Shown here: positions 36 through 19,029 of the stretch, piece after piece | Layout of the letters: each line of letters begins with the position of its first letter | How positions within the stretch are numbered: the stretch's first letter is position 1 | Source of the DNA: Candidatus Poribacteria bacterium | GTDB taxonomy: Bacteria; Poribacteria; WGA-4E; PCPOR2b | Direction of reading: 5' to 3' | DNA: 64,000 nt | NCBI GenBank assembly: GCA_965116925.1 | Contig: OZ220744.1 | Span: 320,001-384,000, forward strand | Program-made: the position numbers and the translations under genes | The notes under the pieces: model-generated | The model's database searches: none | Seen by the model: only the letters and a program-made list of their open reading frames with translations | What the model was told of the DNA's origin: nothing

Positions 36-1844
36 ATGAAAGCGCAGCATACATACACAGAAAACGATGAGCGGCTATCTACAATTCTTAACAGTGTCAG
101 TGACGCTGTAATTGCCACGGATGGACAGGGATTGATAACATTTATGAATCCGGTTGCCGAAACGTTGACAGGTTGGGAAATGGAAGAAGCGTCTGGAAAG
201 CAGGTAACGGATATTTTCGATATTTCTGTTGGAAACGTCGGGAATCTTATAAAAGGCATGTCTTTGATAGAGGTATTTGAAAAAGGATCTGTTATCACCG
301 GGGGATCGTCTTCTGCTTCTGGGGACGACCATAATACCCACCTCATTGCGAAATCTGGTCGAGAAATCCCTATTGACTATAACATCACCCCCATCAAGGA
401 CGAGATGGGAAACCCTACCGGCATCGTTATAACGTTCCACGACATCAGTAAGTATAAAAGGATGGAGGGGCAATTAAACCAATCCATCAGCGAGTTACGT
501 CATCAAACCCAACTGTTGAAGACCGTCTTTGATAGTATGTATGATGGCATCGCGGTGCTCAGTAAAAGTGGTGAAATATTGTTCGCTAATCCAAGTCTGC
601 CACAGATTTTCGGTACGGAGCCCCCAAATACATTACCCAGTCAATGGTCTGAAACGTACGGTATTTTTTATCCTGACAAAGAAACACGCGTTCCGATGGA
701 TCAGATTCTCACACATATCTCCCACGGCGAGGAAATAAGAGATCAAGAGTTTTTTGTATGTAATAAGGAGCAGCCGGAGGGAATCCACATCAGGGCGAGT
801 GCTATCCCGTTATTTGATGAGAATCAGGAGGTTATAGCCTGTCTGTGCGTTATTCGTGACATCTTACGCGCCGAATTTGAGACGAACCGCTCTTTTGATG
901 AGATTGTGGGCAAAAGCCGAATCATGCAGCAGATGTTCACGTTGATGCAACGGGCAGCTGAAAGTGATATTACGGTGCTTATTTCAGGAGAAAGCGGTAC
1001 TGGTAAAGAATTGGTTGCACGCGCTATCCACGCGAATAGCCATCGAAAAGCGGGGCCCTTTATTACGGTAAATTGCGCTGCCATTCCTGAAACACTGCTT
1101 GAGAGCGAGCTGTTTGGGCATGAACGCGGGGCATTCACCGGTGCCACAACGAAACGGATCGGCAAATTTGAACAAGCGAATCGCGGGACTATCTTTTTTG
1201 ACGAAATTGGTGATATGCAATTGGCTCTACAAGCGAAATTGTTGCGTGTGCTTCAAGAGCGGCAGATCCAGCGCGTCGGCGGTACAGCGAATATCCGAAT
1301 TGACATCCGCGTGCTAACAGCGACAAATCAGGATTTAGAATCGGCGGTGGAAGCGGGCACTTTCCGAGAAGATTTGTTCTATCGGATTGAGGCTTTCCCA
1401 ATTGAGGTGCTCCCGCTTAAAGACCGGCGCGAAGATATTCCACTCTTGGTGGACCATTTTCTAAAAAAATACGCCGAAAAAATGAAGCAATCCGTTAAAG
1501 CGATTTCCGCCGATGCCTTACAATTATTGATGCAGTATGACTTTCCCGGCAACGTGCGCGAGCTGGAAAACGCCATTGAACGCGCCGTTCTGCTTGAGCC
1601 CACAGAACAGTTACAATCGAGTAACCTGCCTCCAAAGATTCTGTCAAGGATCTCTTCCAAACCTATCTTCTTTTTCCGCGACCCAACAGAAATCCCGCTG
1701 TTTCAAGAGGTTGAACGTGAAACGTTGGCTCACGCACTCAAGGTGATGGACAATAATATCACCAAGGCCGCTCAAGCCTTGAACATCGACCGATCCACCC
1801 TTTATCGAAAATTGAAGTTGTATCAACTCGTCGAGTCGGATTAA
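36..1844 (+). CDS. PAS-PAS sigma-54-dependent transcriptional activator (bEBP, Fis-type HTH); may extend 5' beyond the window
   Basis: Walker [18 protein letters not shown] loop, DEIGD Walker [10 protein letters not shown]-terminal [16 protein letters not shown]. The frame has no stop between position 3 and the ATG at 36. Confidence 0.95.
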
Positions 1845-1907: not shown

Positions 1908-2322
1908 TAAGCCTTCTCGACTGTCGTAAAATGCGAAAAGTAGTATAGTATTCTGCGACAACCCCGACTCTATCTAGCTTTATTACAGACTTTCCGCCGC
2001 TATCCTCCCACTTAATCGATTTTAATTGTCGCATTTTGCGACATCTTCACCCCATCCACTCTCACGCTATCCGCCCGCCTGTATCCTTCAAAGACAAGCT
2101 ATCAAGGGATTTCTCAGGCTGCGCTCTCGTTCGATTAAGCATTGGCACAGTTTATGCTCATAAATCCAGTTATCCTTCCCGCGGCAGGGGTCCACTTCAC
2201 CGTCCTCGGTGTTGCCTGCCGCTCCCCTTGGACGGGGATTGGGTCCGATAAATCGAGACCAAGGAAGGTTGGAAGGGTTTCCCATTTATCCAATATCAAA
2301 GATTATCTTCAGGCGGGGTGTC
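1908..2322 (+). promoter_or_regulatory. Sigma-54 enhancer/promoter cassette A, copy 1
   Basis: TGGCAC-AGTTT-ATGC with GG at 2144-2145 and GC at 2156-2157 (GG-N10-GC). Perfect palindrome TGTCGCA-TTT-TGCGACA at 2027-2043 and weaker sites at 1922 and 1944. Near-identical copy at 18368-18770. Confidence 0.85.
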
Positions 2323-2595
2323 ACGCTACAATCTTGGCTCAATCTACCCGGAATATCATAGATATTGTCGATTGATTTTGGCAAATCAACCGATAGCAGT
2401 CCGAAATAATTTTTGATGTATGAGCAAAGGGGTGGGAGCCCCACCCCCTACGAAGAATCATCCTTCTATGTACCCCCTTGATTGTCCGGTTGCGCTGAAA
2501 TGTCAGCTGAACCTAACTATGGTGGGCCTGAGAATTAATGGTGGATTCCACTAATTCTTTACATGAACGAAATTTAAAAAAGAAAGGTGCGATAG

Positions 2596-3927
2596 ATGAA
2601 GCAACCACTGATTATTCTTATTTTTTTACTGACGTCAATAATATCAGCATTCGGCGATCATGGGGGTGTTGCGCTTAGAGAGATACCATCGGATACCCCC
2701 CTCACTCCCGACTCCAATACTTTCAGGGTGGAGGGGAGTGAGGGCCATACCGTCGCCGAGATGGAGGCACATGGATATAAGATAACCTTCCCCATTGGAG
2801 AAGGCGATATTTCTGTTATAGCACATAGCTATGACTACTCACAGTGGTTCATTGGCAGAAGAAAGGGGGCATCAACGACAACTCCAACGACATCGACACC
2901 AACGACAACAACTCCAACGACAACAACTCCAACGACAACAACTCCAACGACAACAACTCCAACGACAACAACAACATCGACACCAACAACAACTCCAACG
3001 ACAACGACACCAACAACACAGACTCCACCGCTAGTAGCCACGAAACTGGTGAAGATCTCAGGCGGTAACCAGCAGGGTGCCCCCGGTGAAGAGTTAGCGA
3101 ATCCGTTTGTTGTGGCAGTCCAAGACCAGAATGGCAGACTCTTGGCAGGGGCGACAGTCACCTTTGCTGTCACCGCAGGCGGCGGTGCTCTCAGTGCCAC
3201 CACCCCAACCACCGACGCAAACGGACAAGCGCAGACGACACTCACCCTCGGTTCTATGATAGGGACAAATAGTGTCCAAGCGAGTGTTGAAGGAATTGAC
3301 CAGACACAACTCTTTAGCGCGGAGGCGACCCTTATCGAGGCGGTGCGGAGAACTGTGGCTGATACGACCAGAGGCGGACCGGGGGACCGTCAACTTTACC
3401 AATTCGAGTTGCAACTACAACAGGGGTGGAATCTGATTCATCTACCGTTGACGGTATACGCTGTCAATAATGAATTGCACAGGATTCAAACTGCCGCGGA
3501 GCTGTATGAACTTATCCAACCGATCCTCATGTTCATCTACAGTAGTGAGGAGGGGTTTATGGGTACGCGCGAGGAGACCGACGTTATACTCGGTCCCAAT
3601 CAGGGGATTGCCGTATTAACCGATGCACCGGCGACGTTCACCTTGGTAGGGACGCGGCTGCCGGATCCGTTTCGGTTTGAGCGTGGGTTGAATTTTGTTG
3701 GTCTGCCACGGCAGTCAGTCGCCTTGCAACAGGTGAGCGATTTGTTGCGTGTCTACGAGGAAGCCGTTATAGTCGTCACAACGGTAGACGGTAAGTTCGC
3801 GGCGGTGGGGCGCGCGGCGGATCCGGGGGATCACACGATTACCGGCGGTCAATCGTTTTTTATTATAATGACTGCGCCGCGCGAGACGCACTTCTACGGA
3901 CCGGCGTGGGGGACACCTATTGAATGA
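2596..3927 (+). CDS. Secreted protein with Thr/Pro-rich linker and bacterial Ig-like (Big_1/invasin-type) domain
   Basis: Signal peptide MKQPLIILIFLL..AFG, (PTTTT)n tract, KISGGNQQG..L.NPFVVAVQD..TDANGQAQTTLTLG Big_1-like motif. Confidence 0.8.
   Translation: MKQPLIILIFLLTSIISAFGDHGGVALREIPSDTPLTPDSNTFRVEGSEGHTVAEMEAHGYKITFPIGEGDISVIAHSYDYSQWFIGRRKGASTTTPTTSTPTTTTPTTTTPTTTTPTTTTPTTTTTSTPTTTPTTTTPTTQTPPLVATKLVKISGGNQQGAPGEELANPFVVAVQDQNGRLLAGATVTFAVTAGGGALSATTPTTDANGQAQTTLTLGSMIGTNSVQASVEGIDQTQLFSAEATLIEAVRRTVADTTRGGPGDRQLYQFELQLQQGWNLIHLPLTVYAVNNELHRIQTAAELYELIQPILMFIYSSEEGFMGTREETDVILGPNQGIAVLTDAPATFTLVGTRLPDPFRFERGLNFVGLPRQSVALQQVSDLLRVYEEAVIVVTTVDGKFAAVGRAADPGDHTITGGQSFFIIMTAPRETHFYGPAWGTPIE
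2873..3022 (+). repeat. Intragenic ~15-bp tandem repeat (ACAACTCCAACGACA) encoding PTTTT units
   Basis: Directly visible tandem repeat. Confidence 0.9.
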
Positions 3928-4057
3928 GCACATGATGGGTTAGAGGCATTTATGATAGATCTTAGAATTAACGACACGCGTCAAACGCATCTCAAACGGG
4001 AGGGTAGTGCCGGGCAAGCCTGATGCGACTGATGAACGAATGGGAAGGAAAAACAGA

Positions 4058-7000
4058 ATGGCAAATGCGAAGATCATGATTGTTGAAAGCAATCCCCTTA
4101 TTGCTGAAGACATCGAAGCACGCTTAAAAACGCTAGGATACACTGTTTGCGCTGTCGCTTCATCCGAGGCGGAAGCGGTTGCAAAAGCGGCGGAAATACG
4201 TCCCGACGTAGCCTTGATCAATACAGAACTTGAAGGGCAGCTGGGAGGTTTTGAAGTTGCTCAGGAGATATCTAACCGTTTCAACATTCCGGTGGTATAT
4301 CTGATTGATTCCATGAACGAGGATTTATTAGAGAAGGTAAAGGTAACTAGGGAATTTGGCTATGTCTTCAAACCGTATGAAACGAACCAGTTACGCCTGA
4401 TTATCGAAAGTCAACTTTACCGGTATGCGGAAGATCAGAAAGCCATGGACGAGGAGCAGCGGAGATCTGCGATTCTCAACAATATTGGGGATGCCGTGAT
4501 TACCACGGACGAAGGTGGATTCGTAACATTTATGAATTCGGTTGCTGAGCTCTTGACGGGCTGGCCGCTCGAAGAAGCCGGTGGGGTGTACATAACGAAC
4601 GTTTTCAGTGTGTCGGTTGGAGAATCGAATAGGTCTATTAGAACGAGTTTGATGAATGTACTCCACAAAGGAATCACTATCCAGTGGGGATTGTCAGAGG
4701 CCCGCGATAATGCCCACCTCAATGCTAAATCTGGTCTAAAAGTCGCCATTGACTATCATGCCGCGCCTCTCAGAGACAAACAGAGAAACATCACAGGGGT
4801 AGCTGTGACCTTCCGCGATATGAGGAAGCAGAGAGAAACGGAAAATCGGTTGGACCAGACCATCGCCGAATTGGAAAATCAGAACCAATTGATGGAAACC
4901 GTTTTTAACAGTATCAGTGATGGTATCATCGTTATCAATCCAGAGGGCAGCGCATTACTCACCAATCCAAGTGCCGAACGAATTTTCGGGATGCCGCCAC
5001 GGGAGGTAAAACCGAGCGAGTGGGCTGAAACATACGGTATTTTTTATCCGGATCAAGAAACATATATACCGGCCGATCAGATGCCGGTTACACAGGCTCT
5101 CCAGGGTAAGGTATTAGAAGCGGGCGAGTTCTTTATACGCAATAAGGAGCAACCGGATGGGGTTTATGCCAGGGGCAGTGCAGTCCCTCTATTTGGTAGC
5201 AATGGGGAGATTAGAGGCAGCGTCGCCATTATTAGCGACATCACAAAGGACAAAATAACAGCAGCAAAGCTGGAACAAACAATTACTGAACTACAAAATC
5301 AGAACCAACTGATGGAAACCGTTTTTAATAGTATCAGTGATGGTGTCGTTGTTACCGATGAAGAGGGGATTTTTTTACTTGTTAATCCAAGTGCCGAACG
5401 GATTGTCGGTCTGGGGGTAACGGAGACGATACCCGATGAATGGGCTGAAGAATATGGCACTTTTTATCCCGATCAAGTGACCCCTTTCCCTTCGGATCAG
5501 CTACCACTCGTTCACGCCATTCAGGGTAAGTCCACAGATGGAGTAGATCTGTTTATACGCAATCCGGAAAATCCGGATGGTAGTTTTATCAATGTCCATG
5601 GGAGACCGCTACAGGATCAGGAAAATGTTGTGAAGGGGGGCGTGATTGTTTTCCGCGATGTCACGCAGATCAAGCGCACGGAGGCCAGGTTAGAACAGAC
5701 CATTGATGAACTGGAAAAGCAGGCTCAACTGATAGATACTATTTTTGATAGTATGAGTGATGGGGTGGTCGTTGCTGACGACAAGGGGCAATACATAATG
5801 GCTAACCCAGCTGCGGAAAGGATGATCAGTCGCAATTTTGAGGAGTTAGATCTTCCCCAAGCATCTGAGCAATACGGTCTTTTTGATCCCACTACAGACG
5901 CATTGTTTCCCGCAGATCAGCTTCCACTCGCCCTGGCCATCGAAGGTAAGGCGACAAACAACGTCGAAATGCGTGTAGGCGGCGGGCAATCGTCACAGGC
6001 GGCTTATGTCAGTGTAAATGGGAGGCCTCTACTCGACAAAAACGGCACTTTGATAGGAGGGGTGGTGGTTGCTCGCGATGTCACGCAGCTTAAGGAGACA
6101 GAGATTGAGTTGGACCAGACCGTCGCCGAATTGGAAAATCAGAACCAACTGATGGAAACCGTTTTTAACAGTATCAGTGATGGGGTGGCCGTCACCGATG
6201 AGAAGGGGCGTTTTTTACTTGTGAATCCGGAGGCAGAACAAATTGTCGGTATGGAGGCAGCAGAGACGCCCCCTGATAAATGGGCTGAAACATACGGTAT
6301 TTTTCATCTTGATAAAACGACACCTTTTCCAGCAGCACCGCCGCTCATGCGTATCATATCCGGTGAAGCAATAGACGATCTCAATGTGTTTATACGCAAT
6401 TCTGGGAGACCGGAGGGTGTTTATGTCAACGTGAGTGGGAGAGCCTTGAAGTCTAACGACGGTAATGTGAGAGGTAGCGTTATCGCTTTCCGCGATGTCA
6501 CGCAGCTTAAGGAGACAGAGATTGAGTTAGAACAAACCGTCGCCGAATTGGAAAATCAGAACCAACTGATGGAAACCGTTTTGAACGGTATCAGCGATGG
6601 CGTACTCGCTACCGATACAAACGGGAGATACTTATTTTTTTCTGAAAAGATGAAACAATTAGTTGGTGTACCTTTGGTACGGGATTTAGAAATTGATCAG
6701 CGGCCTCGGGCATACGGTCTCTTTTACCCCGATAAAAAAACGCTTATCGCGGGAGAGGATCTTCCGCTCACCCGGGCGATGCGCGGTGAGATAACAGATG
6801 ACATTGAGTTGTTTGTCCGCAATTCGGCATTGTCGGAAGGTATTTTTATCAAGGCTAGCGGGAGGCCTCTACAAGGCCCAGATGGGAAGATGATGGGTGG
6901 GGTTGTCTTAGTCCGCGATGTTACCGAGCTTAAGGAAGCAGAGATTCAGTTGGAACAGACCGTCGCCGAATTGGAAAATCAGAACCAACTGATGGAAACC

Positions 7001-8641
7001 GTTTTGAATCAGATGAGTGATGGTGTGATTCTTGCTAATAAGGAAGGGCAATACATCATGGCTAACAGGACTGCGGAACAGATGACCGGTCGTAGCCTGC
7101 GGCACATAAGTGGACAGGAGGCCGTTGAACAATACGGCTTCTTTCTCCCCGATAAAAAAACGCCCTTCCCCGCTAATCAGCTTCCGATTGCACGTACCCT
7201 TCGCGGTGAGCCGGCAGACAACATTGGGATGTTTGTCTACAATCCGTCGATGATGCGGGAGGGGATTCATTTAAGTGTCAGTGCGAGACCCCTATATGAC
7301 GGGCAAGGTGCTATAACAGGAAGCGTATCCGTCTCGCGCGATGTCACCGAACTCAGACAGGCAGAAATCAATTTGAAAGACATGGTCCAACAACTTGAAG
7401 AGCAGGGTGCGCTGCTAGAATCCATTTTTAATAGTATCAGTGATGGGGTGGTCGTCGCTGATGTAGATGGCAACTTTAGAATTTTTAATCCAAGTGCCGA
7501 AAGAATTATCGGTATCGGGGCAACAGAGGCGGAGACCGATGAATGGAGCGACACTTATGGGCTCTTTTTCCCCGATAGAGTGACGCCCTTTCCAACAGAT
7601 GAACTCCCGTTAGTGCGTGCCATCCAAGGCGAAATCGTAGACGACCTAGAGATGTTTGTCCGCAATCCGAATGTACCAGAAGGTGTTTTTATCAGCGTCA
7701 GTGCGAGCCCCTTACAGGACGACGAAGGCAACGCGAAGGGGGGCGTGGCTGTATTTCGAGATGTGACTCAGCGAATGATTGCCGAAGAAGCGTTGACCCA
7801 AGCATTTGCACAAGGCCGGCTGGAGATTGTCGATACGATTCTCCACAACATCGGCAACGCAATCAACAGTGTAACGTCAGGCGCTGAAATACTCCAGAGA
7901 GAGTTACACGGCAATCCGTTAATCCCCCGTCTTACTGCCCTGGCTAGCGCGATAAAAGCGCGTGAAGATGATTGGATTGATTACATCAAAAACGACCCAC
8001 AAGGGCAGCAGGTGCTCCCGTTTATTTGTGCGATCGCCGCCGATTTTAAAAATCAAAACGATAGGTGGTTACAACGGGCTGAACGGATCAAACAGCGGGC
8101 GACACATATCGCTGATATTGTCATCACACAAAAGTCATTTGGCAATTCAAGTATAGTCCGCAAGGATGTCAATATTTATGAGGTCATTGATGATGCGCTA
8201 AAGTTACAGCAAGAGTCGATCGACAGAAGAGGGATCGAGATTGATATCGACTGCGAAAACGCGCCACAAGAGATTCGGATTCAGGAGAGTCAATTTCATC
8301 AAATGTTGGTCAATCTTATCAAAAATTCAATTGAAGCCATTGATGAATCGGTTCAATCGGGCGGTTTCAATGGGACCCCGCGCATCCGTGTCAGAACCTA
8401 TATTGATGGAGATTTTTACTGTCTTGAGGTGATTGATAACGGTATAGGCGTAGAACGGGAAAACAACAAGTTGATTTTTGCCGCTGGTTATACCACAAAG
8501 GAATCGGGGAGCGGGCTCGGTTTGCATTCAATCGCGAATTTTGTCATCGCAGCCGGCGGGAAAATTGAGCCGGTGAGTGAAGGTATCGGCAAAGGTATGA
8601 CGATGCGTGTCATGCTGCGGCTCTCCTCTGTTCTCCCATAG
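4058..8641 (+). CDS. Sensor histidine kinase: N-terminal degenerate receiver, 8 PAS domains, HisKA and HATPase_c
   Basis: Eight S(I/M)SDG/IGDA-type PAS starts, H-box ILHNIGNAINSV, N-box NLIKNSIEA, DNGIG, TTKESGSGLGL. ATG at 4058 preferred over the GTG at 4007. Confidence 0.93.
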   Translation: MANAKIMIVESNPLIAEDIEARLKTLGYTVCAVASSEAEAVAKAAEIRPDVALINTELEGQLGGFEVAQEISNRFNIPVVYLIDSMNEDLLEKVKVTREFGYVFKPYETNQLRLIIESQLYRYAEDQKAMDEEQRRSAILNNIGDAVITTDEGGFVTFMNSVAELLTGWPLEEAGGVYITNVFSVSVGESNRSIRTSLMNVLHKGITIQWGLSEARDNAHLNAKSGLKVAIDYHAAPLRDKQRNITGVAVTFRDMRKQRETENRLDQTIAELENQNQLMETVFNSISDGIIVINPEGSALLTNPSAERIFGMPPREVKPSEWAETYGIFYPDQETYIPADQMPVTQALQGKVLEAGEFFIRNKEQPDGVYARGSAVPLFGSNGEIRGSVAIISDITKDKITAAKLEQTITELQNQNQLMETVFNSISDGVVVTDEEGIFLLVNPSAERIVGLGVTETIPDEWAEEYGTFYPDQVTPFPSDQLPLVHAIQGKSTDGVDLFIRNPENPDGSFINVHGRPLQDQENVVKGGVIVFRDVTQIKRTEARLEQTIDELEKQAQLIDTIFDSMSDGVVVADDKGQYIMANPAAERMISRNFEELDLPQASEQYGLFDPTTDALFPADQLPLALAIEGKATNNVEMRVGGGQSSQAAYVSVNGRPLLDKNGTLIGGVVVARDVTQLKETEIELDQTVAELENQNQLMETVFNSISDGVAVTDEKGRFLLVNPEAEQIVGMEAAETPPDKWAETYGIFHLDKTTPFPAAPPLMRIISGEAIDDLNVFIRNSGRPEGVYVNVSGRALKSNDGNVRGSVIAFRDVTQLKETEIELEQTVAELENQNQLMETVLNGISDGVLATDTNGRYLFFSEKMKQLVGVPLVRDLEIDQRPRAYGLFYPDKKTLIAGEDLPLTRAMRGEITDDIELFVRNSALSEGIFIKASGRPLQGPDGKMMGGVVLVRDVTELKEAEIQLEQTVAELENQNQLMETVLNQMSDGVILANKEGQYIMANRTAEQMTGRSLRHISGQEAVEQYGFFLPDKKTPFPANQLPIARTLRGEPADNIGMFVYNPSMMREGIHLSVSARPLYDGQGAITGSVSVSRDVTELRQAEINLKDMVQQLEEQGALLESIFNSISDGVVVADVDGNFRIFNPSAERIIGIGATEAETDEWSDTYGLFFPDRVTPFPTDELPLVRAIQGEIVDDLEMFVRNPNVPEGVFISVSASPLQDDEGNAKGGVAVFRDVTQRMIAEEALTQAFAQGRLEIVDTILHNIGNAINSVTSGAEILQRELHGNPLIPRLTALASAIKAREDDWIDYIKNDPQGQQVLPFICAIAADFKNQNDRWLQRAERIKQRATHIADIVITQKSFGNSSIVRKDVNIYEVIDDALKLQQESIDRRGIEIDIDCENAPQEIRIQESQFHQMLVNLIKNSIEAIDESVQSGGFNGTPRIRVRTYIDGDFYCLEVIDNGIGVERENNKLIFAAGYTTKESGSGLGLHSIANFVIAAGGKIEPVSEGIGKGMTMRVMLRLSSVLP

Positions 8642-8660
8642 TGGGGCGATAAATTGTCAG

Positions 8661-8878
8661 GCCCGGTAGGTGCGGTTTTATGAAGTTTAAGTATTTAAAT
8701 CGGTAATCCCTATTTTCCTCGAAACATACGGTAGGCGCGGTTTTCAACCGCGCCGGCGTCGCTAGCAAATTACCGAACTGTTTTTTTAATTTTCATTTAA
8801 CCGCACCGAATTCAGCCCAATCCGGTAGATTTGGTTTTTAACCGCATCGCATTGGCGCAGTTATAAACAGCGCCTACC
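8661..8878. repeat. REP cluster upstream of the RAYT (GTAG-type REPs)
   Basis: GGTAGG(C/T)GCGGTTTT..AACCGC(G/A)CC hairpins; minus-strand REP at 8854-8878. Confidence 0.85.
8680..8796. mobile_element. 117-bp MITE-like element inserted in the loop of a REP; homologous to 15395-15510
   Basis: The uninterrupted REP at 9449-9500 shows the empty site. Ends ATGAAG...TTTCAT, inner CGGTAAT/ATTACCG inverted repeat, central REP. Confidence 0.75.
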
Positions 8879-8914
8879 AAATACGAGAATGGTAGATATG
8901 GAGGAAAACCAAAC

Positions 8915-9388
8915 GTGAACACCGGTCCCAAACATCGAAGCCACAATCTCCGCAAAGGCAGGACTTCAATACAAGGCACATATTACCATATCATCATCTG
9001 TACACACCAGCGACAGAAAATTCTAATGGAACCCACAATTGCATCAATTATCTTCAAAGCATTCGACTGGCTCGAAACAGAGAATCGCCAGGAATGGGTA
9101 TGTATCATGGTGATGCCGGATCATGTACACACGGTTATTAAACTTGGACAAGGGCAGACCTTGGGACAAGTTTTGCATTCGATGAAACGCTTTACAGCAC
9201 ACGAGATTAACAAACATTTATCCCGGACCGGATCTCTCTGGCAGAAAGGTTATACCGATTGGGGCATTCGGGACGAGATGGCCTTAAACAAAACAATCCG
9301 CTATTGTTATGCGAACCCTGTGAGAGCGGGTATAGTCGCGTTAGCTCGAGATTATCCATATTGGCGATGCAAATTCCAGATGGAATAG
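8915..9388 (+). CDS. REP-associated tyrosine transposase (RAYT, Y1_Tnp/HUH family)
   Basis: YYHIIICT, HUH motif VMPDHVH, LWQKGY, Y..ANPVRAG, DYPY; flanked by REPs on both sides. Confidence 0.92.
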   Translation: MNTGPKHRSHNLRKGRTSIQGTYYHIIICTHQRQKILMEPTIASIIFKAFDWLETENRQEWVCIMVMPDHVHTVIKLGQGQTLGQVLHSMKRFTAHEINKHLSRTGSLWQKGYTDWGIRDEMALNKTIRYCYANPVRAGIVALARDYPYWRCKFQME

Positions 9389-9410
9389 TGGGTGTAGTGT
9401 CGGTTGAAAC

Positions 9411-9984
9411 GGCGCAGTTGGAAACAGCGCCTACCAAGCTTTCCCCAGGCCCGGTAGGTGCGGTTTTTAACCGCACCGAATTCAGTCCAACCCGGTAGAT
9501 TTGGTTTGCAACCGTACCGCATCGGCGCAGTTATAAACAGTGCCTACCGAATGGGAGGCCGTGAGGGTGGAAACGGCGCAGTTGAAAACAGCGCCTACCA
9601 TACACAGGAAGCATCGGCGCAGTTATAAACAGTGCCTACCGAATGGGAGGCCGTGAGGGTGGAAACGGCGCAGTTGAAAACAGCGCCTACCATACACAGG
9701 AAGCATTGGCGCAGTTATAAACAGCGCCTACCGAATGGGAGGCCGTGAGGGTGGAAACGGCGCAGTTGAAAACAGCGCCTACCATACACAGGAAGCATTG
9801 GCGCAGTTATAAACAGCGCCTACCGAATGGGAGGCCGTGAGGGTGGAAACGGCGCAGTTGAAAACAGCGCCTACCAAATGGAAGAACGGTAACGACGGTT
9901 TCCTAACCGCATCGCATCGGCGCAGTTGAAAACAGCGCCTACCATACACAGGAAGCATCGGCGCAGTTAGAAACAGTGCCTACC
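9411..9984 (-). repeat. REP/BIME-like array: eleven 25-bp REPs, including about 4 tandem 92-bp units
   Basis: GGCGCAGTT(N3)AACAG(C/T)GCCTACC at 9411, 9524, 9575, 9616, 9667, 9708, 9759, 9800, 9851, 9919 and 9960; two linker sequences alternate. Confidence 0.92.
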
Positions 9985-10014
9985 AAACTTCTGTTAAATA
10001 TAAGAGGGGATTCA

Positions 10015-11952
10015 ATGGAATTAAAAACGGATTGGAACAATCGCATCTTGGTTGTTGATGACCAAGAAGAGATCCACGATGATCTTGAAGATATGTTGAC
10101 TTTCAACTCTATGCAGGCAGCAGAGAGTAGTAAGGCAGAAACGGATGCTTTCGCAGACCTATTTCTTGATGAAGCTGAAAAATCCTATCTGCCAGACTTT
10201 GAAATTTTGCATGCGATGGGCGGGGAGCAGGCGTGTGAAATCGTGAAAGCGAGTAAGGAATCGAACCGTCCCATTGCTGTAGGATTCATTGATGTCAGAA
10301 TGCCGCCGGGAATTGATGGGATTGAAGCAATCCATCAGATTAGACAGGTTGATAAAAACATGGAGATCGTCATCATGACCGCTTACACGGATAGGCCGCT
10401 GCCTGAGATGATCCATGATATGGAATTGCTTCATAAATTGCTCTATATCAGAAAGCCTTTCGTGCAGGAGGAGATTCAGCAGCTCGCCCTTTCCCTTGTC
10501 GAAAAGTGGAACATTGACGTGGAAAAAAGGCAGGCTGAACAGGAATTAATCAAAAACCAACAGCAACTGATAATCAGTCATAAAAGGCTTGAAACGGTAC
10601 TGGATTCTACGGGAGATGCCATCGGAATGTTTGACACCAACGGATCCTTGGTGTTTGCAAATCAATGGTATGAGGAGTTGTTCGAATTAACAGAAAGTGA
10701 ATTGAAGCAGATGGCACCCAACGACCATCAAGCACGGGTCAAAGCGCGTTTTCAAGAGTCAATCTCTCCTGAAGCGAAGATAAACGCACCCTTTGGAACC
10801 ACCGGAAGGGTGGAAGATATTATGGAAGTTAGCGAATCAAAACCCCGGTTGTTTCGTCGCCTGACCGCGCCGGTGCATGATGATAAGGGAAACATTGCCG
10901 GTAACATTATCACTTACCGCGACACCTCCAAAGAGATCGAATTCGAGCGGATGAAATCCGAAGTCGTTCGCTTACGTAACACGCTCCAAACAACCTCCTC
11001 CTTTAGTGGCATCATAGGTAAGAGCCAAGAGATGCAAGAGGTGTTCACGTTGATACAACGTGCGGCTGAAACCAACATCACCGTGCTGATTCAGGGGGAA
11101 AGCGGGACAGGTAAAGAGCTAGTCGCCCAATCCATCCATTTTAATAGTGATCGAAAAACGGAGCCATTTGTCGTCGTCAATTGTGCGGCGATTCCCGATA
11201 CACTTATTGAAAGCGAACTTTTTGGACATGAACGTGGGGCTTTCACAGGCGCGACAGCGCAAAAAATCGGACAATTTGAACAAGCCAATAGAGGAACAAT
11301 TTTTCTCGATGAAATTGGCGATATGCCATTTAACCTGCAAGCCAAGTTGTTGCGCGTCCTTCAAGAACGGGAGCTCCAGCGTGTCGGCGGAGCCAGAACG
11401 ATTCCGATTGACATCCGAGTCATCGCAGCGACAAATCAGGACTTAACTACCGCGGTAGAAGCAGGCGACTTCCGTCTGGATCTTTTCTATCGCCTCGCTG
11501 CCTATCCGATCGAGATTCCACCACTCAGAGCGCGGCGCGAAGATATCCCCCTATTGGCAAGACACTTTTTAGAAAAATATGTCGAAGATACTAACAAATC
11601 CATCAGTGAAATTTCCCCAAGTGCCTTACAACTGTTGATATGGCATGACTTCCCTGGCAATGTACGTGAGTTAGAGAACATCATTGAACGTGCTGTCCTG
11701 CTTGAGACAACGGATAGCCTACAAGCGTCCAATCTATCCTCGTCTATCCTTCCGATTTCCACCTCCCAAGCTGTTTCTCCGCACCTTTCCTCAACGACAA
11801 TCGTCCCGCTTGTGGAGGTCGAGAAGCAAGTACTTGCCCACGCCCTCGAAACTACGGACAATAATGTTAACAAGGCAGCCCAAGCCTTGGGTATCAATCG
11901 AGGGACCCTTTATCGGAAATTGAAGATGTATCAACTGTCCGTGTCAGAATAA
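10015..11952 (+). CDS. Sigma-54-dependent response regulator (REC-PAS-AAA+-HTH, NtrC family)
   Basis: [20 protein letters not shown] and RKPF receiver motifs; [15 protein letters not shown]; Fis HTH. ATG at 10015 follows the GAGGGG RBS. Confidence 0.95.
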
Positions 11953-11961
11953 TTTAGAGCG

Positions 11962-12290
11962 TAGTAGGCACCCTCCGTGCGCCGTAACCCCCCCATAGTA
12001 GTAGGCACACTCCGTGTGCCGTCCCCAAATCTCCTGCTGCATAATGCGACCAAGCTGCAGAATGCAGCACTTTCCCCACATCCCCCGTCATCACAGGCTC
12101 CCCACCGATTTTTCCCTCTACCTTTTCCTAATCTGCTGCATTTTGCGACATTCAAAAGCAACCTGTGCGCCCTGAAAAAAATCTAAAAAAAAACGACGTG
12201 CTCTCGTGAAAAGCCTGTCCTTAAGGGATTTGTCCGCCGTTAGTCCCCTTTCCCCACCCCTGAATTGGAGGTTGGCACGGTTCATGCGTT
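11962..12290 (+). promoter_or_regulatory. Sigma-54 enhancer/promoter cassette B, copy 1 (with two REPs at its 5' edge)
   Basis: TGGCAC-GGTTC-ATGC (GG 12274-5, GC 12286-7). Enhancer-like TGCTGCA-N3-TGCGAC sites at 12035, 12053 and 12134. Near-identical copy at 15347-15786. Confidence 0.85.
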
Positions 12291-12355
12291 TTGCGTTCCA
12301 TGTCCTTAGATCACAACAAGATGTACCATTACAATGAAAGGTAGAACACTGAAAA

Positions 12356-14560
12356 TTGAAAACAACAAGAATCATTTCATCTTCGCCCATGTTAAGAAAT
12401 CGTGCAACAGTAGAGACAGGTCTTATATCTGATCAAGCCCGCTTCCTTCGTTGCCTCTCTGCTATCGCGCTGCTCGGCGCGCTTTTCCTATTCGCTGCTC
12501 CTCCCGCGTCGGCGGGACCAAGGCAGCACCTGACCGGCCTGTCGATGTCGGCCAACGGGACCGCGGTCCCGATCACCCATACGTCCACGTCCGCCGACGG
12601 GCAAATATGGTTTTATACGGCGACCGTTTCGCCTGACACGACCAGCGTGAGCGTCACGCCCACATGGACCGCCACCGTCGTCGATGCTCAGATAAGTTCC
12701 GCGACGCCGGACCATGACAACGTAATCACCAACGCTATAACAGTCTCCACATCCGGCACCTCCGCATCCGTGAACTTGGCATCCAGCGGCGACACTTGGG
12801 TGTCGGTTGCCCTGTTTTATGAGAGGAACGCTGCCACTGATTACAGGATCATCGTCAGCAAGCCGCCCGCCGCGCCAACCGGTCTAACGGTCACGGCGGG
12901 TAATGGGGAGCTGCGCTTGGCGTGGACGCGGCCGGTGGACGCTATCGCCGGCTACGACGTGGCATACACCTCGGCGAGCAGCAGCGCAGTCGCCGACACC
13001 GCGGCGGCGTCGGGCAGCGACCCCAGCGTCGCCTGGGTGCTGACGCGCTACAATCCCTCGTCCAGCGCGACCTCCTGGACAATTTCGGGCTTGACCAACA
13101 ATACGGACTACCGGGTGCGCGTACGCGCGATAGCGCGCAATTTTCTTGAGAGCCCCTGGGTGTTCGCTACGGGCAAGCCGAAGGTGCCACCAAGGCAGCA
13201 CCTGACCGGCCTGTCGCTGTCGGTCGACGGGATAGCTGTCCCGATCACCGAGACGTTCACGTCCGCCGATGGTCAAACAAGGTCTTATACGGCGAGCGTC
13301 CCGCACGACACGACCAGCGTGAGCATCACGCCCACATGGACCGCCACCGGCGTCGTTGTTCAGGTAGGTTCCATAATACCGTACCAGTACGACGTAATCA
13401 CCGACACTATAATAGTCTCCGCATCCGGCACCTCCAACTCCGTGAACCTGGCATCCAGTGGCAACACGCTGGTGTGGATTGCTCTGTTTTATGCGGACGG
13501 TACTGCCAGCACTTATTACGATATCATCGTCAGTAGGTTGCAGCCGCCCGCCGCGCAGATCGCGGTCCCGGCGCAGACGCGCCCCACAATCCGGATGTCA
13601 GTGTCTCCGAACCCGGTGGACGAGGGCTCGTCGGTGACGGTGACACTGACGCTGTCGGAAACGGCGGCGAGCCAAGTGGTCATCCCGGTGACGCTGACGG
13701 CTATATGGGCAGAGTCCGGCGACTACGGACCGCTGTCGTCGATTACGATCCCCGCCGGCGAGACAATCGGCACGGGGACTATCACCACGGCGCAGGACGC
13801 CGACGCCGAGCACGAGACATTCAGACTGGTGCTTGGGGCACCGCCGGCCGGATACGCTATGCCGTTGAGCCAGATGCAGATCATGATCCGGGACGACGAG
13901 GCCGCGGGCGCAGCACCTATCGCGCGCGCTATACACGATAACCAGACACCTGGCCTGTCCGTCTTCGGTTCTATCGTTGACGAAGGTGCCGGCGTCGCGA
14001 AGGAAGGTTTCCGAGTCAAGGTCAAAAACCTGACAACGAAGGCTTCTGTTAGCGAGATCAGTTCTGTCGAAACAGCAGACGGATATAGCGTGACCTTGGT
14101 TGACCTAGCTAACGCTCGCGCAACACGGGTCGGTGATGTGTTAGAGATTTCTGCTGAGTCGCTGGATCCGCGGATTGGTGTCGAACCGGTGCGGCATCTC
14201 GTTACAGTGGACGATGTGAAGCGCGGCACTATCCAGCTGGAAGATCTGATCGCGTATGAGATTCCCGCTGGGACGGAGCTGCTTCGCAACTATCCGAACC
14301 CGTTCAACCCAGAGACGTGGATTCCGTATCGTCTATCAGAGGATGCCGACGTGTCGTTAACCATCTACGATGCAAATGGTGGCTTGGTACGCTCCATTGA
14401 TGTGGGACATCAATCCGCAGCAGTGTATGAGTCCAGAGCCAAAGCCATCTACTGGGATGGTCGGAACCAATTCGGTGAACAGGTTGCAAGTGGCGTCTAT
14501 TTCTATAGCTTGAGTGCAGGAGACTTCTCGGCGACCCGTAAAATGGTAATACTGAAATAG
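12356..14560 (+). CDS. Secreted adhesin-like protein: two cadherin-like beta-sandwich repeats, FN3, Calx-beta-like and FlgD-Ig/T9SS-type C-terminal domain; start codon uncertain
   Basis: Duplicated PRQHLTGLS..TPTWTAT unit, PAAPTGLTVTAGNGELRLAW..YRVRVRA (FN3), NYPNPFNPETWIPY C-terminal domain. Confidence 0.8.
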   Translation: MKTTRIISSSPMLRNRATVETGLISDQARFLRCLSAIALLGALFLFAAPPASAGPRQHLTGLSMSANGTAVPITHTSTSADGQIWFYTATVSPDTTSVSVTPTWTATVVDAQISSATPDHDNVITNAITVSTSGTSASVNLASSGDTWVSVALFYERNAATDYRIIVSKPPAAPTGLTVTAGNGELRLAWTRPVDAIAGYDVAYTSASSSAVADTAAASGSDPSVAWVLTRYNPSSSATSWTISGLTNNTDYRVRVRAIARNFLESPWVFATGKPKVPPRQHLTGLSLSVDGIAVPITETFTSADGQTRSYTASVPHDTTSVSITPTWTATGVVVQVGSIIPYQYDVITDTIIVSASGTSNSVNLASSGNTLVWIALFYADGTASTYYDIIVSRLQPPAAQIAVPAQTRPTIRMSVSPNPVDEGSSVTVTLTLSETAASQVVIPVTLTAIWAESGDYGPLSSITIPAGETIGTGTITTAQDADAEHETFRLVLGAPPAGYAMPLSQMQIMIRDDEAAGAAPIARAIHDNQTPGLSVFGSIVDEGAGVAKEGFRVKVKNLTTKASVSEISSVETADGYSVTLVDLANARATRVGDVLEISAESLDPRIGVEPVRHLVTVDDVKRGTIQLEDLIAYEIPAGTELLRNYPNPFNPETWIPYRLSEDADVSLTIYDANGGLVRSIDVGHQSAAVYESRAKAIYWDGRNQFGEQVASGVYFYSLSAGDFSATRKMVILK

Positions 14561-14582
14561 TATCACTATACACTCACCTGAT

Positions 14583-14633
14583 ATAGCCGTTGGAGGCCCC
14601 ACACAATCGGGGCATTCAACGGCTATTTTTTTT
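14583..14633 (+). terminator. Intrinsic terminator
   Basis: ATAGCCGTTG...CAACGGCTAT stem followed by a T-run. Confidence 0.7.
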
Positions 14634-14638
14634 GGTTT

Positions 14639-14823
14639 TAGGACTTACGCAGTTGCACGCTCCCCCGCCCTGTTTGGAGAGTCTTAGACTTGCAGTTGGG
14701 CGATTTATCGTTACAGCACGCTGTTACCAACGCCCGATAAATTGAGCAACTCCAGCAGAGACACCCTCAAGGAGTTCGTAGGGAACGCAGATCTGCGTTC
14801 CCTACTGAAGTGCGTAACTCCTA
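14639..14823. mobile_element. MITE with TAGGACTTACGCA...TGCGTAACTCCTA ends and an internal GTAG palindrome
   Basis: Homologous copy at 26128-26290 and a lone left end at 15178. Internal perfect palindrome GTAGGGAACGCAGATCTGCGTTCCCTAC. Confidence 0.8.
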
Positions 14824-14829
14824 GGTTTA

Positions 14830-15075
14830 ACCTAAGTTGCTAGTCGTTGAAAGTCCACCGTTTTTTGTCAGGGCAGAGCCTCCCCGACCATCTGGTAGGT
14901 CCTTTGTCTTTCGCTCCAGAGGAGCGATATGTCTATAGAAGGGTAACATGTTCAATCCCTGCGCTCCAGAGGAGCGCAATGTGTATAGCCAGAGCCAAGC
15001 TGACGATAAATTGAAGTCCTAAGAACGGATTGGCGAAGTCGGAGCCGAGCGGGTTTTATAACTAGCAACTTGCGT
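14830..15075. mobile_element. IS982-derived MITE with 8-bp target duplication TAGGTTTA
   Basis: Ends ACCTAAGTTGCTAGT / ACTAGCAACTTGCGT match the IS982 TIRs at 43384/44306. TAGGTTTA at 14822-14829 and 15076-15083. Confidence 0.88.
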
Positions 15076-15346
15076 TAGGTTTATGTAAAAAGAAAGTGCA
15101 AAGCACGAAGTGAAGTGCACCTCCAGCCCCCCCTTAATCCCCCCGCAAGCGGGGGGAGAGTCACGCAGCAAAAACATTAGGACTTACGCAGTTGAACGGT
15201 CAAAGCACTGTAGTCAACTACAAACCCTCGTGGGTGCAGATTTCCCAATCTCGATTCCATCGGGACACGGCAGGTTAGGCAACCTACCCCCACGGTTTGA
15301 GTAATTTTTCAATCACGCATCACGTTATCAACAGGTTATTACATTA

Positions 15347-15786
15347 CGTAGGCACCCTCCGTGTGCCGTAACCCCCATAGTAGTAGGCACACTCGTGGGT
15401 TTTAAGAAATTAAACGGGTAATTCTATATTTCCCCAGACCCGGTAGGTGCGGTTTCCCCCCGCACCGGACATCGCTCGGAAATTACCCAATTAATAAATT
15501 AATTCTTCATCCGTGTGCCGTAACCAAATCTCCTGCTGCATAATGCGACCAAGCTGCAGAATGCAGCACTTTCCCCGCATCCCGCGTCATCACAGGCTCC
15601 CCGCCGATTCTCCCCTCTACCTTTTCCTAATCTGCTGCATTTTGCGACATTCAAAAGTAACCTGTGCGCCCTGAAAAAAATCTAAAAAAAACGGCGTGCT
15701 CTCGTGAAAAGCCTGTCCTGAAGGGATTTGTCCGCCGTTAGTCCCCTTTCCCCACCCCTGAATTGGAGATTGGCACGGTTCATGCA
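15347..15786 (+). promoter_or_regulatory. Sigma-54 enhancer/promoter cassette B, copy 2
   Basis: Near-identical to 11962-12290 apart from a 116-bp insertion; GG 15772-3, GC 15784-5. Confidence 0.85.
15395..15510. mobile_element. 116-bp MITE-like element inserted in a REP loop
   Basis: Absent from the paralogous site at 12001-12022; aligns with 8680-8796. Confidence 0.75.
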
Positions 15787-15910
15787 CTCTGTGTGCTTAG
15801 ACCATCAAAGAAAGGAGATTATGATAAAAAAAACGATTTTTTTCTTTCACATTACTCTTGGTAATTCAACTCTTTATTAGTACTTACATCATTCATACAG
15901 GGAGCAAAAC

Positions 15911-17080
15911 ATGGGTAGTAAATTAAAAACATATTTGCAGGATCCGCTCTTGAATCAGATGTTTTCTGAGGTTAGGCAAGCCGGTCCTCTCAAATCTATA
16001 CTGGTAGACATTACACACTTGTGCAATCTTCGATGCCAAGGCTGTTACTTTTTTGCGGAGAACCTAGACGAGCATAAATCGCCTAGCGATGAAGCAGTGC
16101 TTGACACTTTTATTGAGGAGGAAAAAGTGAGGGGGACCAATTACATAACAGTCGTCGGTGGGGAACCCACTCTCCAGTTGGATCGCCTCAAAAAGCTTTA
16201 TGACAATTTCTGGCTGGTTGTTGTCACCAACGGGCTCCGCAAAATTCCTTACGATGGCTTTGAAAATATGCCAATCGGTATTTCTATCTGGGGCGACCAT
16301 GAGACGGATACAGTTCTGCGAGGGTATGGGAAAATTGATGTTTTTGATCGAGCCTTAAAAAATTTCAAAGATGACCCCCGTGCAATTTGGTACTACACGA
16401 CTTCCCCCGGCAATGCCCATGAAATTGAAAGTGTAGTCGATCAGTGTGTTGCCAACGGCAACTACGTTACCTTCAATTTTTATGGTGACGTATCGAGTTT
16501 AGGTGGAAAGTTCGATCATACCAGGGGCTTTGAAAAGGTCCGTCATGAGATTGATCGGGCGATTCAACGACATCCCGATAAGATTTTGATGTCGCCTTAT
16601 CTCGCTGAAGTTGTCTCAACAGGAGAGTTGTTCGGTCAAAAATGGGGTTATGACGTTTGCCCGAGCGTTACCTTTGACAACGAGATAAACAGAGAGCGTG
16701 TTAAAAATGGGAATCCATACAATACGCATTTTCGTGCTTACAACCCCGATCTTAAAACAACCCGCCGGTGTTCCGTTGGTAATGAGAGAGACTGCTCAAC
16801 CTGTTACGACGTGTATGTCCACTTCGCTTGGATTATGTTAAACATGAAGCGGCACCTGCATACCGAGAAGGATTTCACAAACTGGTTAACAACGATGTAT
16901 CTCTTTTATTTGGGCAATCGGATTGTTGATTTTGAAACTGGTATTAAACTGTTGCCCAGTATTCACGAGCGGTTGCAGACTTTGCGTGATGAAGATTGGG
17001 CGTTCCCATCACTCAATACAGGCATGATGGCAAGCGGTCAGGCTTTCAATGCCCCACGCAATATCTCTGGGTATGTGTAG
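15911..17080 (+). CDS. Radical SAM protein with C-terminal Cys cluster (twitch/SPASM-like)
   Basis: CNLRCQGCYF (CX3CX2C), GGEP, VTNG, C-terminal CPS...RRC...DCSTC. Confidence 0.92.
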   Translation: MGSKLKTYLQDPLLNQMFSEVRQAGPLKSILVDITHLCNLRCQGCYFFAENLDEHKSPSDEAVLDTFIEEEKVRGTNYITVVGGEPTLQLDRLKKLYDNFWLVVVTNGLRKIPYDGFENMPIGISIWGDHETDTVLRGYGKIDVFDRALKNFKDDPRAIWYYTTSPGNAHEIESVVDQCVANGNYVTFNFYGDVSSLGGKFDHTRGFEKVRHEIDRAIQRHPDKILMSPYLAEVVSTGELFGQKWGYDVCPSVTFDNEINRERVKNGNPYNTHFRAYNPDLKTTRRCSVGNERDCSTCYDVYVHFAWIMLNMKRHLHTEKDFTNWLTTMYLFYLGNRIVDFETGIKLLPSIHERLQTLRDEDWAFPSLNTGMMASGQAFNAPRNISGYV

Positions 17081-17139
17081 TAAGTAAACAGGTCCCGACA
17101 GGAAAATGTCGATTTTGGAAAATCGACCTACAAAAACTA

Positions 17140-17231
17140 GGCTCATGTTAAGCAATCGTGCAACAGAAACCGAGTTCTTTCTTCAAAACTCGGTTTCTCT
17201 TCATGCCTTGCACTCTCTTTTTATATCAGCC
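17140..17231. mobile_element. MITE of the GGCTCATGTTAAG family
   Basis: Same end sequence at 12385, 18192, 19030, 46753-46898 and 52611; internal AGAAACCGAGTT...AACTCGGTTTCT palindrome. Confidence 0.7.
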
Positions 17232-17251
17232 TCCAAACTTAAGGAATCACA

Positions 17252-18151
17252 ATGGAAACACAGAATATCGAACTTTGTATTGATGGCTTTCGTTATTTCT
17301 ATAAGGTTTACCCCAACGCTGAAAGCAATTTTGCCCCGTTTGTGCTTATCAGCGGAAGTTTTCAGTCAATAGATGGGTGGAAGAAGCACGCTGAATGGTT
17401 GAACCAATTCGCCCCGGTCATTGTGTTTGATCCACCAGGGGTTGGGCTCTCCGACCCGCTACCTGCCCATTACGGTCTCGATTTCTTGGCAAACTCCCTT
17501 TTGAAGGTACTCGAAATGGAGGAAATCCCCCTGGTAAATTTGTTGGGAATATCTTACGGCACGGCTGTCGCTTACGGTTTTGCCCAATTGTATCCTCATA
17601 AAGTGAATCGAATGATATTAGCTGGATCCATGAAACAGATCCCGGCTGAGCAGGTCAAAGATATTCAAAAATCACTCACACTGTTGCGAGAGGGGAAAAA
17701 AGCCGATTTTGTGGATAGTGTGCTTCAGTTTTTAATCTGCCAAGATAAGCAAAAGTTTGTTGCGAAACGCCGCTCAATGGAGCGAGTCCTGCGGTCAATA
17801 GTGTCCACAGCTTCCACGGACGATTTAAAGAAATATGAACAGAACATGCTGCGGGCCATAACTCTCTCACATCTGGACTTGACGAATTCTCCAGACGTGC
17901 CGACTTTGGTCTTCACCGGTGAGCATGACACCTGCACCAATCCCCGCCATTGTTTGAAATTTGCAGAGGCACTTTCTAAGGGCATTTATACCACGATTCA
18001 AAACGCAGATCATCTTTTCTATCTTGAACAGTTTCTGACGGTTGTTGGGCTGGCTGCGGATTTCTTTTTAGAACTGCCGTTGGAGGCGTTAGAGGGGTGT
18101 ACCCCGGTAGAATACTTCGACAAGCAGCTGCCAATGGCCCTTGCCGCCTGA
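17252..18151 (+). CDS. Alpha/beta-fold hydrolase/acyltransferase
   Basis: FDPPGVGLS, nucleophile elbow GISYG, GEHD, ADHL catalytic triad. Confidence 0.9.
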   Translation: METQNIELCIDGFRYFYKVYPNAESNFAPFVLISGSFQSIDGWKKHAEWLNQFAPVIVFDPPGVGLSDPLPAHYGLDFLANSLLKVLEMEEIPLVNLLGISYGTAVAYGFAQLYPHKVNRMILAGSMKQIPAEQVKDIQKSLTLLREGKKADFVDSVLQFLICQDKQKFVAKRRSMERVLRSIVSTASTDDLKKYEQNMLRAITLSHLDLTNSPDVPTLVFTGEHDTCTNPRHCLKFAEALSKGIYTTIQNADHLFYLEQFLTVVGLAADFFLELPLEALEGCTPVEYFDKQLPMALAA

Positions 18152-18191
18152 AGCCCCTATAGTGAATATAATACCAATTTTGACAAAGAAC

Positions 18192-19029
18192 GCTCATGTT
18201 AAGATTTAGTGCAAAGAAACCGAGTTTTGAAGAAAAAACTCGGTTTCTCCTCGTTGGTTCATTGGTTCATTGGGTAATTACTGAACGAATGAACCAGTAA
18301 ACTCATGAATAACTTCGCCCCTCGGTAGGTGCGGTTACAAACAGTACCTACCAAGCGGTAGATTTAATAACCCTTCTCAATTGTCGTAAAATGCGAAAAG
18401 TAGTATAGTATTCTGCGACAACCCCGCCTCTATATAGCTTTGTTACAGACTTTCCGCCGCTATCCTCCCACTTAATTGATTCCAACTGTCGCATTTTGCG
18501 ACATCTTCACCCCATCCACTCTCACGCCATCTAACCGCCTGTATCCTTCAAAGACAAGCTATCAAAGGATTCCTTAGGCTTTGCCCTCGTTTGATTAAGC
18601 ATTGGCACAGTTTATGCTAATTTATCCAGTTATCCTTCCCGCGGTAGGAGTCCACTTCACCGTCCTCGGTGTTGCCTGCCGCTCCCCTTGGACGGGGATT
18701 GGGAGGGTTGGAAGGGTTGGAAGGGTTTCCCATTATACAATATCGAAGTTTATCTTTAGGTGGAGTGTCTGCCTATCAGGGGGATCGTCTACCTGTATGA
18801 CCGAATCCAAACGCCGTGCAAGCATTGAAAAATCCAAGCACGTTAACATCGGTATAAGGCGATGGGCTGCTGCTGGTGTGGGCGAGAAGTGCGTCTTGGC
18901 TACAGACGTTGTGGCGGAGGCGAGCAATCTCCCTTTTGCAAATGAGCCTTTTGATGTTCGCTCATATAAAAAAAGGTGCAAAACGCGAAGCGAACATTCG
19001 GTTTCTTTGCACTAAATCTTAACATGAGC
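18192..19029. mobile_element. 838-bp segment bounded by perfect 32-bp inverted repeats, carrying sigma-54 cassette A copy 2
   Basis: GCTCATGTTAAGATTTAGTGCAAAGAAACCGA at 18192-18223 and its exact reverse complement at 18998-19029. Confidence 0.7.
18368..18770 (+). promoter_or_regulatory. Sigma-54 enhancer/promoter cassette A, copy 2
   Basis: Offset 16460 bp from copy 1; palindrome at 18487-18503; GG 18604-5. Confidence 0.85.

Follow-up and report, generated by a model that had tools for sequence, protein, structure and literature searches.

We analysed a 64,000-nt stretch of a Candidatus Poribacteria genome (the window, to whose full length plain coordinates refer; G000 denotes the source genome and C1 its contig) that holds two pairs of similar non-coding modules, in the order A-B-B-A, and two genes for bacterial enhancer-binding proteins (bEBPs). 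All window features described are on the plus strand. The first activator gene, bEBP1 (36..1844), encodes a PAS-PAS-AAA(sigma-54 activator) protein with a helix-turn-helix (HTH) of the Fis type in which Asp occupies the Fis-84 position. It is followed by module A1 (1922..2157), comprising three palindromic upstream activating sequences (UAS1, 1922-1938; UAS2, 1944-1960; UAS3, 2027-2043) and a -24/-12 box (2142-2157); by a predicted pseudoknotted 5' leader RNA (2166..2272), a three-way junction with a bulge-loop kiss that begins a few nt past the predicted start site; and by a gene (2596..3927) with a signal-peptide-like start, a Thr/Pro-rich linker and a Big_1 domain. Then come a hybrid kinase gene (4007..8641; REC, many PAS, HATPase), a Y1 (IS200/RAYT-like) transposase gene with an array of repetitive extragenic palindrome (REP)-like repeats (8915..9986), and bEBP2 (9976..11952; REC-PAS-AAA-HTH). 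Module B1 (12035..12287; UAS at 12035, 12053 and 12134; box 12272-12287), with a REP-like repeat just upstream (11961-12028), precedes a gene for a 734-aa fn3/cadherin-like protein with a FlgD-Ig tail (12356..14560). Module B2 (15534..15785; UAS at 15534, 15552 and 15633; box 15770-15785) precedes the decayed start of a small signal-peptide open reading frame (ORF; 15821..15880), which is 84-101 aa long in relatives, where it follows B, and then the radical SAM and alpha/beta hydrolase genes (15911..18151). Module A2 (18382..18617; UAS at 18382, 18404 and 18487; box 18602-18617) has REP-like repeats rather than an activator gene in front of it, and is followed by a second copy of the leader (18626..18732), a broken remnant of a 97-aa Cys/Arg-rich ORF (18797..18912) and a gene for a secreted-type protein with a FlgD-Ig tail (19058..20917).

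A1 and A2 are 87.8% identical over 418 nt (1906-2322 and 18366-18769), and B1 and B2 96% identical over 262-277 nt, their homology proper beginning at about 12010 and 15510; a later insert splits the REP upstream of B2. A1 begins 59 bp and B1 79 bp behind the bEBP genes, both of which encode GAFTGA and HTH_8. A first-pass annotation had described two cassettes, each occurring twice, with a palindrome pair, a single site and a -24/-12 box, the first copies lying directly downstream of the activator genes; all four are present as that annotation had it. A scan of the window for the palindrome pattern (TGTCGCA-N3-TGCGACA type) gave eight strand-matches against 0.12 expected, and the GG-N10-GC box pattern gave four, one in each module, against 0.00 expected (100 shuffles each). 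Short-read contigs from two runs (X1 and X2, one of which may be the source of the assembly) fork at B into two different genes, the pieces beginning at 12241 and 15739; a raw Hi-C run gave a single read. Because the contigs fork in this way and relatives hold the same layouts, the repeats are real, and an assembly artefact is rejected.

A and B had been regarded as separate cassettes forming a local regulon, and neither view survives. The two align end to end and constitute one homologous family, defined by three palindromes and a GG-N10-GC box. A profile search found eight copies in the source genome: A1, A2, B1, B2, A3 (C1:3117784), the partial, decayed A5 (C1:3119363), A4 (C1:3232969), which lies behind a third activator 82% identical to bEBP1, and a distant type (C1:6372612). 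A sequence-only model gave 191 matches in 36 of 61 genomes, with a maximum of 17 per genome (f1, 26 of 28; f3, 7 of 11; f2, 2 of 14; f4, 0 of 7). The exact UAS3-to-box pattern was matched 26 times among 185,579 GTDB genomes, all titled Ca. Poribacteria, and by none of the viral contigs; sequencing runs containing the window stretch include sponge metagenomes, and no RNA run was among those listed. Judged by these matches, the module is a family occurring in several poribacterial genera and not a local circuit. The distant version, present in single copy (G000:C1:6372389-6372612, L186), precedes a conserved 365-380-aa gene without a Pfam family in most members of the genus, and is located behind the core activator in G022 and G025; it is possibly the ancestral target.

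From other genomes, 138 matches were retrieved, taken from 150 listed of the 191. Together with the source genome's own loci these yielded 165 profile hits, of which 125 were kept as full modules (a box and a score of at least 95); the 40 dropped were partial, weak or on the reverse strand, and include the distant single-copy type. Since the box belongs to this definition, its invariance is not evidence. Forty-two full modules lie behind an intact activator gene, 18 behind a broken or partial one (in some cases cut by a contig end), and 65 are solo.

The spacing of these modules is that expected of an enhancer-dependent promoter. UAS1 and UAS2 are 18-19 bp apart in 96, and UAS2 and UAS3 82-84 bp apart in 84, of 109 well-scored modules, with the canonical box 97-164 bp after UAS3. 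Distances from UAS3 to the box cluster at 107, 116-117, 125-129, 136-140 and 147-152 bp in 118 modules, a helical phasing of R=0.70 at 10.5 bp, or 0.46 when each of the 26 distinct values is counted once. A spanning tree of 110 modules shows 34 length changes between nearest neighbours; 22 of them deviate by no more than 2 bp from a multiple of 10.5, as compared with an expectation of 43% (p=0.008). Across all 125 modules, with sites and spacers defined by column, UAS columns changed less than spacers on linked edges (11.7 versus 17.4%), on mixed edges (12.7 versus 16.0%) and on edges joining two solo copies (8.2 versus 13.0%). Phasing and slower UAS change fit selection on a looping enhancer-promoter, solo copies included.

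These measurements bear on the proposal that only activator-adjacent copies work, solo copies being neutral leftovers of duplication, made uniform by gene conversion, in a genome rich in repeats. Decayed copies and pseudogenes do exist, such as A5 and the broken ORFs behind A2 and B2, and B1 and B2 are more alike than their age, as judged from the arrangement shared with G005 and G011, suggests. Nevertheless, the conservation of UAS columns between solo copies, the persistence of phasing across copies, and the sharing of solo clades with conserved cargo by G008, G009, G010 and G017 make this an improbable account.

The genome encodes the machinery that such promoters would use. Two genes match the sigma-54 DNA-binding domain (PF04552; L001 and L002, at G000:C1:123832 and 5246670), and the intact bEBPs carry GAFTGA, Walker motifs and an HTH. 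The module box reads ATGC rather than TTGC in 109 of 125 copies; most other intergenic boxes read TTGC. Activator dimers would bind the three palindromes; looping on one face of the helix would bring them to sigma-54 polymerase at the box, and the promoter would open in response to PAS or kinase input. Transcription would be expected to start about 12 nt past the GC, at about 2169, 12299, 15797 and 18629. Two spacer blocks are conserved, one amid the UAS sites and one ahead of the box (e.g. 1975-1995 and 2085-2115). An IHF site that assists looping is a frequent though dispensable part of such promoters. The identification of the spacer blocks as IHF sites is unsupported, as the genome gave a single IHF/HU-family gene (PF00216), HU-like by our reading.

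Sigma-54 promoters served by bEBPs with Fis-type HTHs have NifA/FhlA-like TGT-N10-12-ACA motifs, and enhancer-promoter looping is established for them, according to the part of PMC6615313 covered here. The modules resemble those promoters in their TGT-N11-ACA palindromes, in the placing of multiple sites 100-250 bp ahead of a -24/-12 box, and in the position of the activator gene beside its target. They differ in that the whole 250-bp stretch, spacers included, is homologous and recently copied, not an assemblage of separately evolved sites.

The activators linked to modules form two supported clades, apart from a near-universal core activator; no module match was found in G033, G039 or G042, where the core activator was the sole one obtained. 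The bEBP2 HTH (GINRGT) aligns without gaps to Fis, its Asn falling on Fis Asn84, a residue that faces and reads the +/-4 base pair in Fis (PMC4784862). The activator paralog at C1:3233236 has Ala there. Where the activator has D, N or H at this position, the adjacent module has G at -4 in 179 of 192 half-sites; where it has A, S, G, P or T, the base is C or T in 153 of 168. Overall, residue and base agree in 58 of 60 activator-linked modules. The likeness to Fis extends to G at -7 and C at +7, and to a residue that precedes the recognition-helix Arg and lies opposite the +/-4 base pair. The difference, within what that source describes, is that the Fis contact adds little affinity and mainly excludes thymine, whereas the modules would have a two-state specificity switch. 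One HTH residue would set the +/-4 base, and genomes with both activator types would therefore run two partly insulated regulons.

Comparison with relatives indicates how A-B-B-A arose. In G018 the bEBP1 ortholog is followed by A, a leader, an intact 97-aa Cys-rich ORF and homologs of the genes from 19058 onwards in the window; the ORF lies directly behind bEBP1-A in G014, G005 and G008 also. In the source genome this ORF is broken and lies behind A2, and A1 has a different leader tail and the gene with the Ig-type domain, the N-terminus of which was found in 0 of 19 congeners. Thus bEBP1-A-small ORF in G018 has become bEBP1-A1-[16.4 kb]-A2-broken ORF. The flanks of the kinase-bEBP2-radical SAM-hydrolase block in G005, G007 and G018 are 45 bp apart at C1:6.413 Mb in the source genome, and the block is at a third site in G011; since its flanks are near-adjacent elsewhere in the source genome, we take the block to have moved between A1 and A2. 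Within it, G006, G007 and G018 have B, then the small signal-peptide ORF, then the radical SAM gene, while in the source genome, G005 and G011 a 734-873-aa gene and a second B are inserted before the radical SAM gene. bEBP2-B-radical SAM has in this way become bEBP2-B1-[new gene]-B2-radical SAM. The second B of G011 carries 170 codons of the activator's tail, and the 734-aa gene itself occurs in two of 19 congeners, in both between two B copies.

From these comparisons we conclude that A-B-B-A is a product of stacked insertions, both nests reading activator, module, new gene, module, old gene. The first-pass annotation had proposed that new genes are wired in by duplication of whole regulatory cassettes. 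In this window the second copies keep the ancestral genes and the new genes stand behind the activator-adjacent copies; it was therefore new genes that were inserted, together with a promoter duplication, and not cassettes that were placed ahead of resident genes. Such stacks are general, as judged by clustering: of the 108 copies located on large contigs, 47 have another within 30 kb, against 7.6 expected, and 28 of 29 close pairs are on the same strand.

The ends of the copied units were examined in 77 within-genome module pairs (which overlap) that are at least 84% identical and precede non-homologous cargo. Measured from UAS1, the 5' ends fall anywhere between -1096 and +136; measured from the box, the 3' ends fall between -7 and +417, with 33 at +15 to +29. 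The duplicated unit often includes a piece of the activator 3' end, in keeping with the 18 modules behind broken or partial activator genes. With ends spread over more than 1 kb, a fixed-end transposon, insertion sequence (IS) or miniature inverted-repeat element is rejected, and ragged duplication with recombination is favoured. The proposal of wiring by whole-cassette duplication is accordingly upheld in part: duplicated enhancer and promoter modules do precede lineage-specific genes, but with ragged ends that do not delimit a cassette.

A non-autonomous mobile element (for instance one mobilised by Y1 transposases of the IS200/IS605 or RAYT kind through flanking REPs or a leader of the tnpB type) is an unlikely explanation, as is an integron-like platform that has its own recombinase. 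The cluster of 3' ends near the start site, the REP-like repeats directly upstream of A2, B1, B2 and A3, the fold that the leader shares with IS605 tnpB leaders, and the same-strand stacking would all suit it. That cluster may mark where selection ends, and the scattered 5' ends, often with activator tails, the spread of 3' ends and the absence of matches in viral contigs speak against such an element, as does the fact that inspection showed neither terminal inverted repeats nor target duplications. In integron cassette arrays, same-strand arrays of variable genes, the newest genes lie beside a fixed platform gene. Module stacks are alike in being same-strand and in having the newest genes nearest the fixed activator gene, but each unit has its own promoter and ragged ends. 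No IntI or attC was found among the ORFs of window positions 1-25 kb or among the repeats, the loci inspected; no genome-wide IntI search was made.

A further parallel is with putative mobile promoters (PMC3575422), highly similar upstream regions that precede unrelated genes in one genome by a mechanism not known. Their criterion (80% identity or more along 50 nt or more before non-paralogous genes in one genome) describes A1/A2, B1/B2 and the 77 pairs. In the part of that commentary covered, mostly pairs are described and no enhancer-dependent family is named, whereas the present module has a cognate activator clade, phasing, a matching HTH-base change and stacks.

We favour, with a probability of about 0.72, the reading that the repeats derive from a single sigma-54 enhancer-promoter module, likely functional and belonging to the 3' flank of a poribacterial PAS-bEBP clade. 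Its copies probably spread as ragged segmental duplications and through recombination with one another, and new genes would in this way come under the activator. Insertion could occur by crossover, or by unequal exchange, inside the module or immediately behind it. Several observations weigh against this reading. Many copies precede broken genes or activator fragments, and the tree edges and neighbour pairs used above are not fully independent. A mosaic test of A1 and A2 gave mixed sites inside the module with no single crossover point, so that a single Campbell crossover inside A was not found. As regards the HTH-UAS match, a separation of about 100 bp means that HTH and UAS are inherited together; a module tree with the bases in question masked needs only three UAS and four HTH changes, an activator tree with weakly resolved branches gives eight of each, and independent-pair tests of co-evolution were not significant (two to three supported pairs, p 0.5). 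Sequence comparison thus places the match at the structurally expected position, while co-evolution is without statistical proof.

The genes behind the modules are diverse. A signal-peptide-like start was present, by a crude hydropathy rule, in 69 of 111 first genes, as compared with 1146 of 4409 long ORFs of the genome. A protein family scan of 62 proteins, 60 of them cargo, found LRR, WD40, TPR, Ig/cadherin/PKD, FlgD-Ig tails and PorV, with many cargo proteins lacking a family; further activators, a sigma-70 region-4 protein, STAS, TetR, Cas10, Csx1-like proteins, helicases and an integrase were also found, and one module precedes a tyrosine recombinase gene (L114). The earlier statement that the cargo is unrelated holds for the genes that follow, although A2 is first met by the broken Cys-rich ORF and B2 by the signal-peptide remnant. 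Modules lie directly upstream of Cas10/Csm1, Csx1-like NE0113 and DEAD-box genes at L091, L122 and L125. The CRISPR-associated and helicase cargo suggests that defence genes may be under module control. Copies of the 97-aa basic, Cys-rich repeat ORF stand behind A-type modules at L188 (G000:C1:3117200-3116930), L065, L077, L101 and L119; it has no Pfam family, and the ESM Atlas gave weak, below-threshold leads to phage-like proteins.

In 53 of 125 modules the promoter continues, at the predicted start site, into an element of about 100 nt, a structured RNA with covariation, behind which come a hairpin and an AU-rich run. In the three-way junction with bulge-loop kiss, 93.3% of cells are paired across 46 copies, against 88.0% in shuffles. 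In ten pairs both partners changed (against 0 of 500 shuffles), including four of the five in the kiss; this covariation is mostly one two-variant switch, and related sequences inflate the shuffle control. The leader model has matches in 30 of 61 genomes, and the leader also occurs alone behind sigma-70-like promoters, for instance upstream of bEBP1. Rfam gave no match in window positions 1-24000 at E<=1 and, for a second leader variant, one sub-threshold snoRNA chance match in three loci. In the predicted fold the 3' end pairs near a purine-rich, ribosome-binding-like stretch, which suggests a role in translational or stability control.

This structure raises the proposal that A-type modules mainly yield a small RNA, as do the multicopy sigma-54 Qrr loci, with the downstream genes as bystanders. 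The covarying RNA with its hairpin and AU-rich run is what such a view would predict. It is very improbable, however, given that the other 72 modules, including all B types seen, lack the leader, that many leaderless modules have a ribosome-binding site and a gene 50-80 bp behind the box, and that tnpB mRNA leaders have the same fold. The leader model matches two tnpB leaders of the source genome at E about 1e-12 (TnpB by Pfam), and of ten tnpB leaders folded, six form a kiss of 6-7 bp, in five different sequences. IS605-family tnpB elements of this genome thus carry the same three-way-junction and kissing fold at their predicted start; the modules differ from them in lacking tnpB and IS ends, and the leader is not the 3' omegaRNA region. 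Such a 5' leader, its bulge-loop kiss varying strongly, stands at the predicted start of at least 13 IS605-type tnpB copies (G000:C1:3085110, 2056858, 4799084, 1491122, 720378, 571327 and others; L175-L184). These tnpB 5' leaders are a candidate for an undescribed RNA motif.

A wider proposal, which we regard as speculative and rather doubtful, is that Poribacteria run a promoter-cassette form of gene capture. The master enhancer-promoter behind each PAS-bEBP gene would be a landing pad for surface and defence genes, each captured unit would keep its own promoter copy, a code of one HTH residue and one base pair would give orthogonal regulons, and the undescribed pseudoknotted leader that many modules carry, derived from IS605 tnpB, would add a second layer of control. 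Titles and abstract openings, the literature covered (subscription papers and supplements fell outside it), contained no paper describing sigma-54 modules duplicated in Poribacteria, an HTH-UAS switch of this kind or a pseudoknot 5' of tnpB. The usual view is that bacterial regulons expand as point mutations give rise to short binding sites. A promoter of the sigma-54 type is hard to gain by that route, since several sites, spacing and phase are needed at once, and the 125 copies offer a natural series of such a promoter gained wholesale. Copying the switch itself would let sponge-symbiont Poribacteria plug new, often exported genes into an existing switch, and provides a testable case of how symbionts subject their fast-turning surface genes (LRR, WD40, TPR and Ig) to control by signals. 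The predicted one-residue specificity switch could be useful for orthogonal sigma-54 parts, and the leader is a structured RNA without an Rfam family.

Some minor observations concern the genes between the modules. The Y1 gene region (8652-9986) has GTAG-type REP-like repeats on its flanks and a 92-bp tandem array, and several REP-like repeat families are abundant in the source genome. The 734-aa ORF begins at TTG, its start being tentative, and contains a fragment of a genome-wide short repeat in its 5' end (12385-12415). The hybrid kinase, the left end of the block found elsewhere in relatives, varies in length among them (4007-8641 as compared with L093 and L120), from 1394 to 1829 aa, with the number of its 140-aa PAS repeats.

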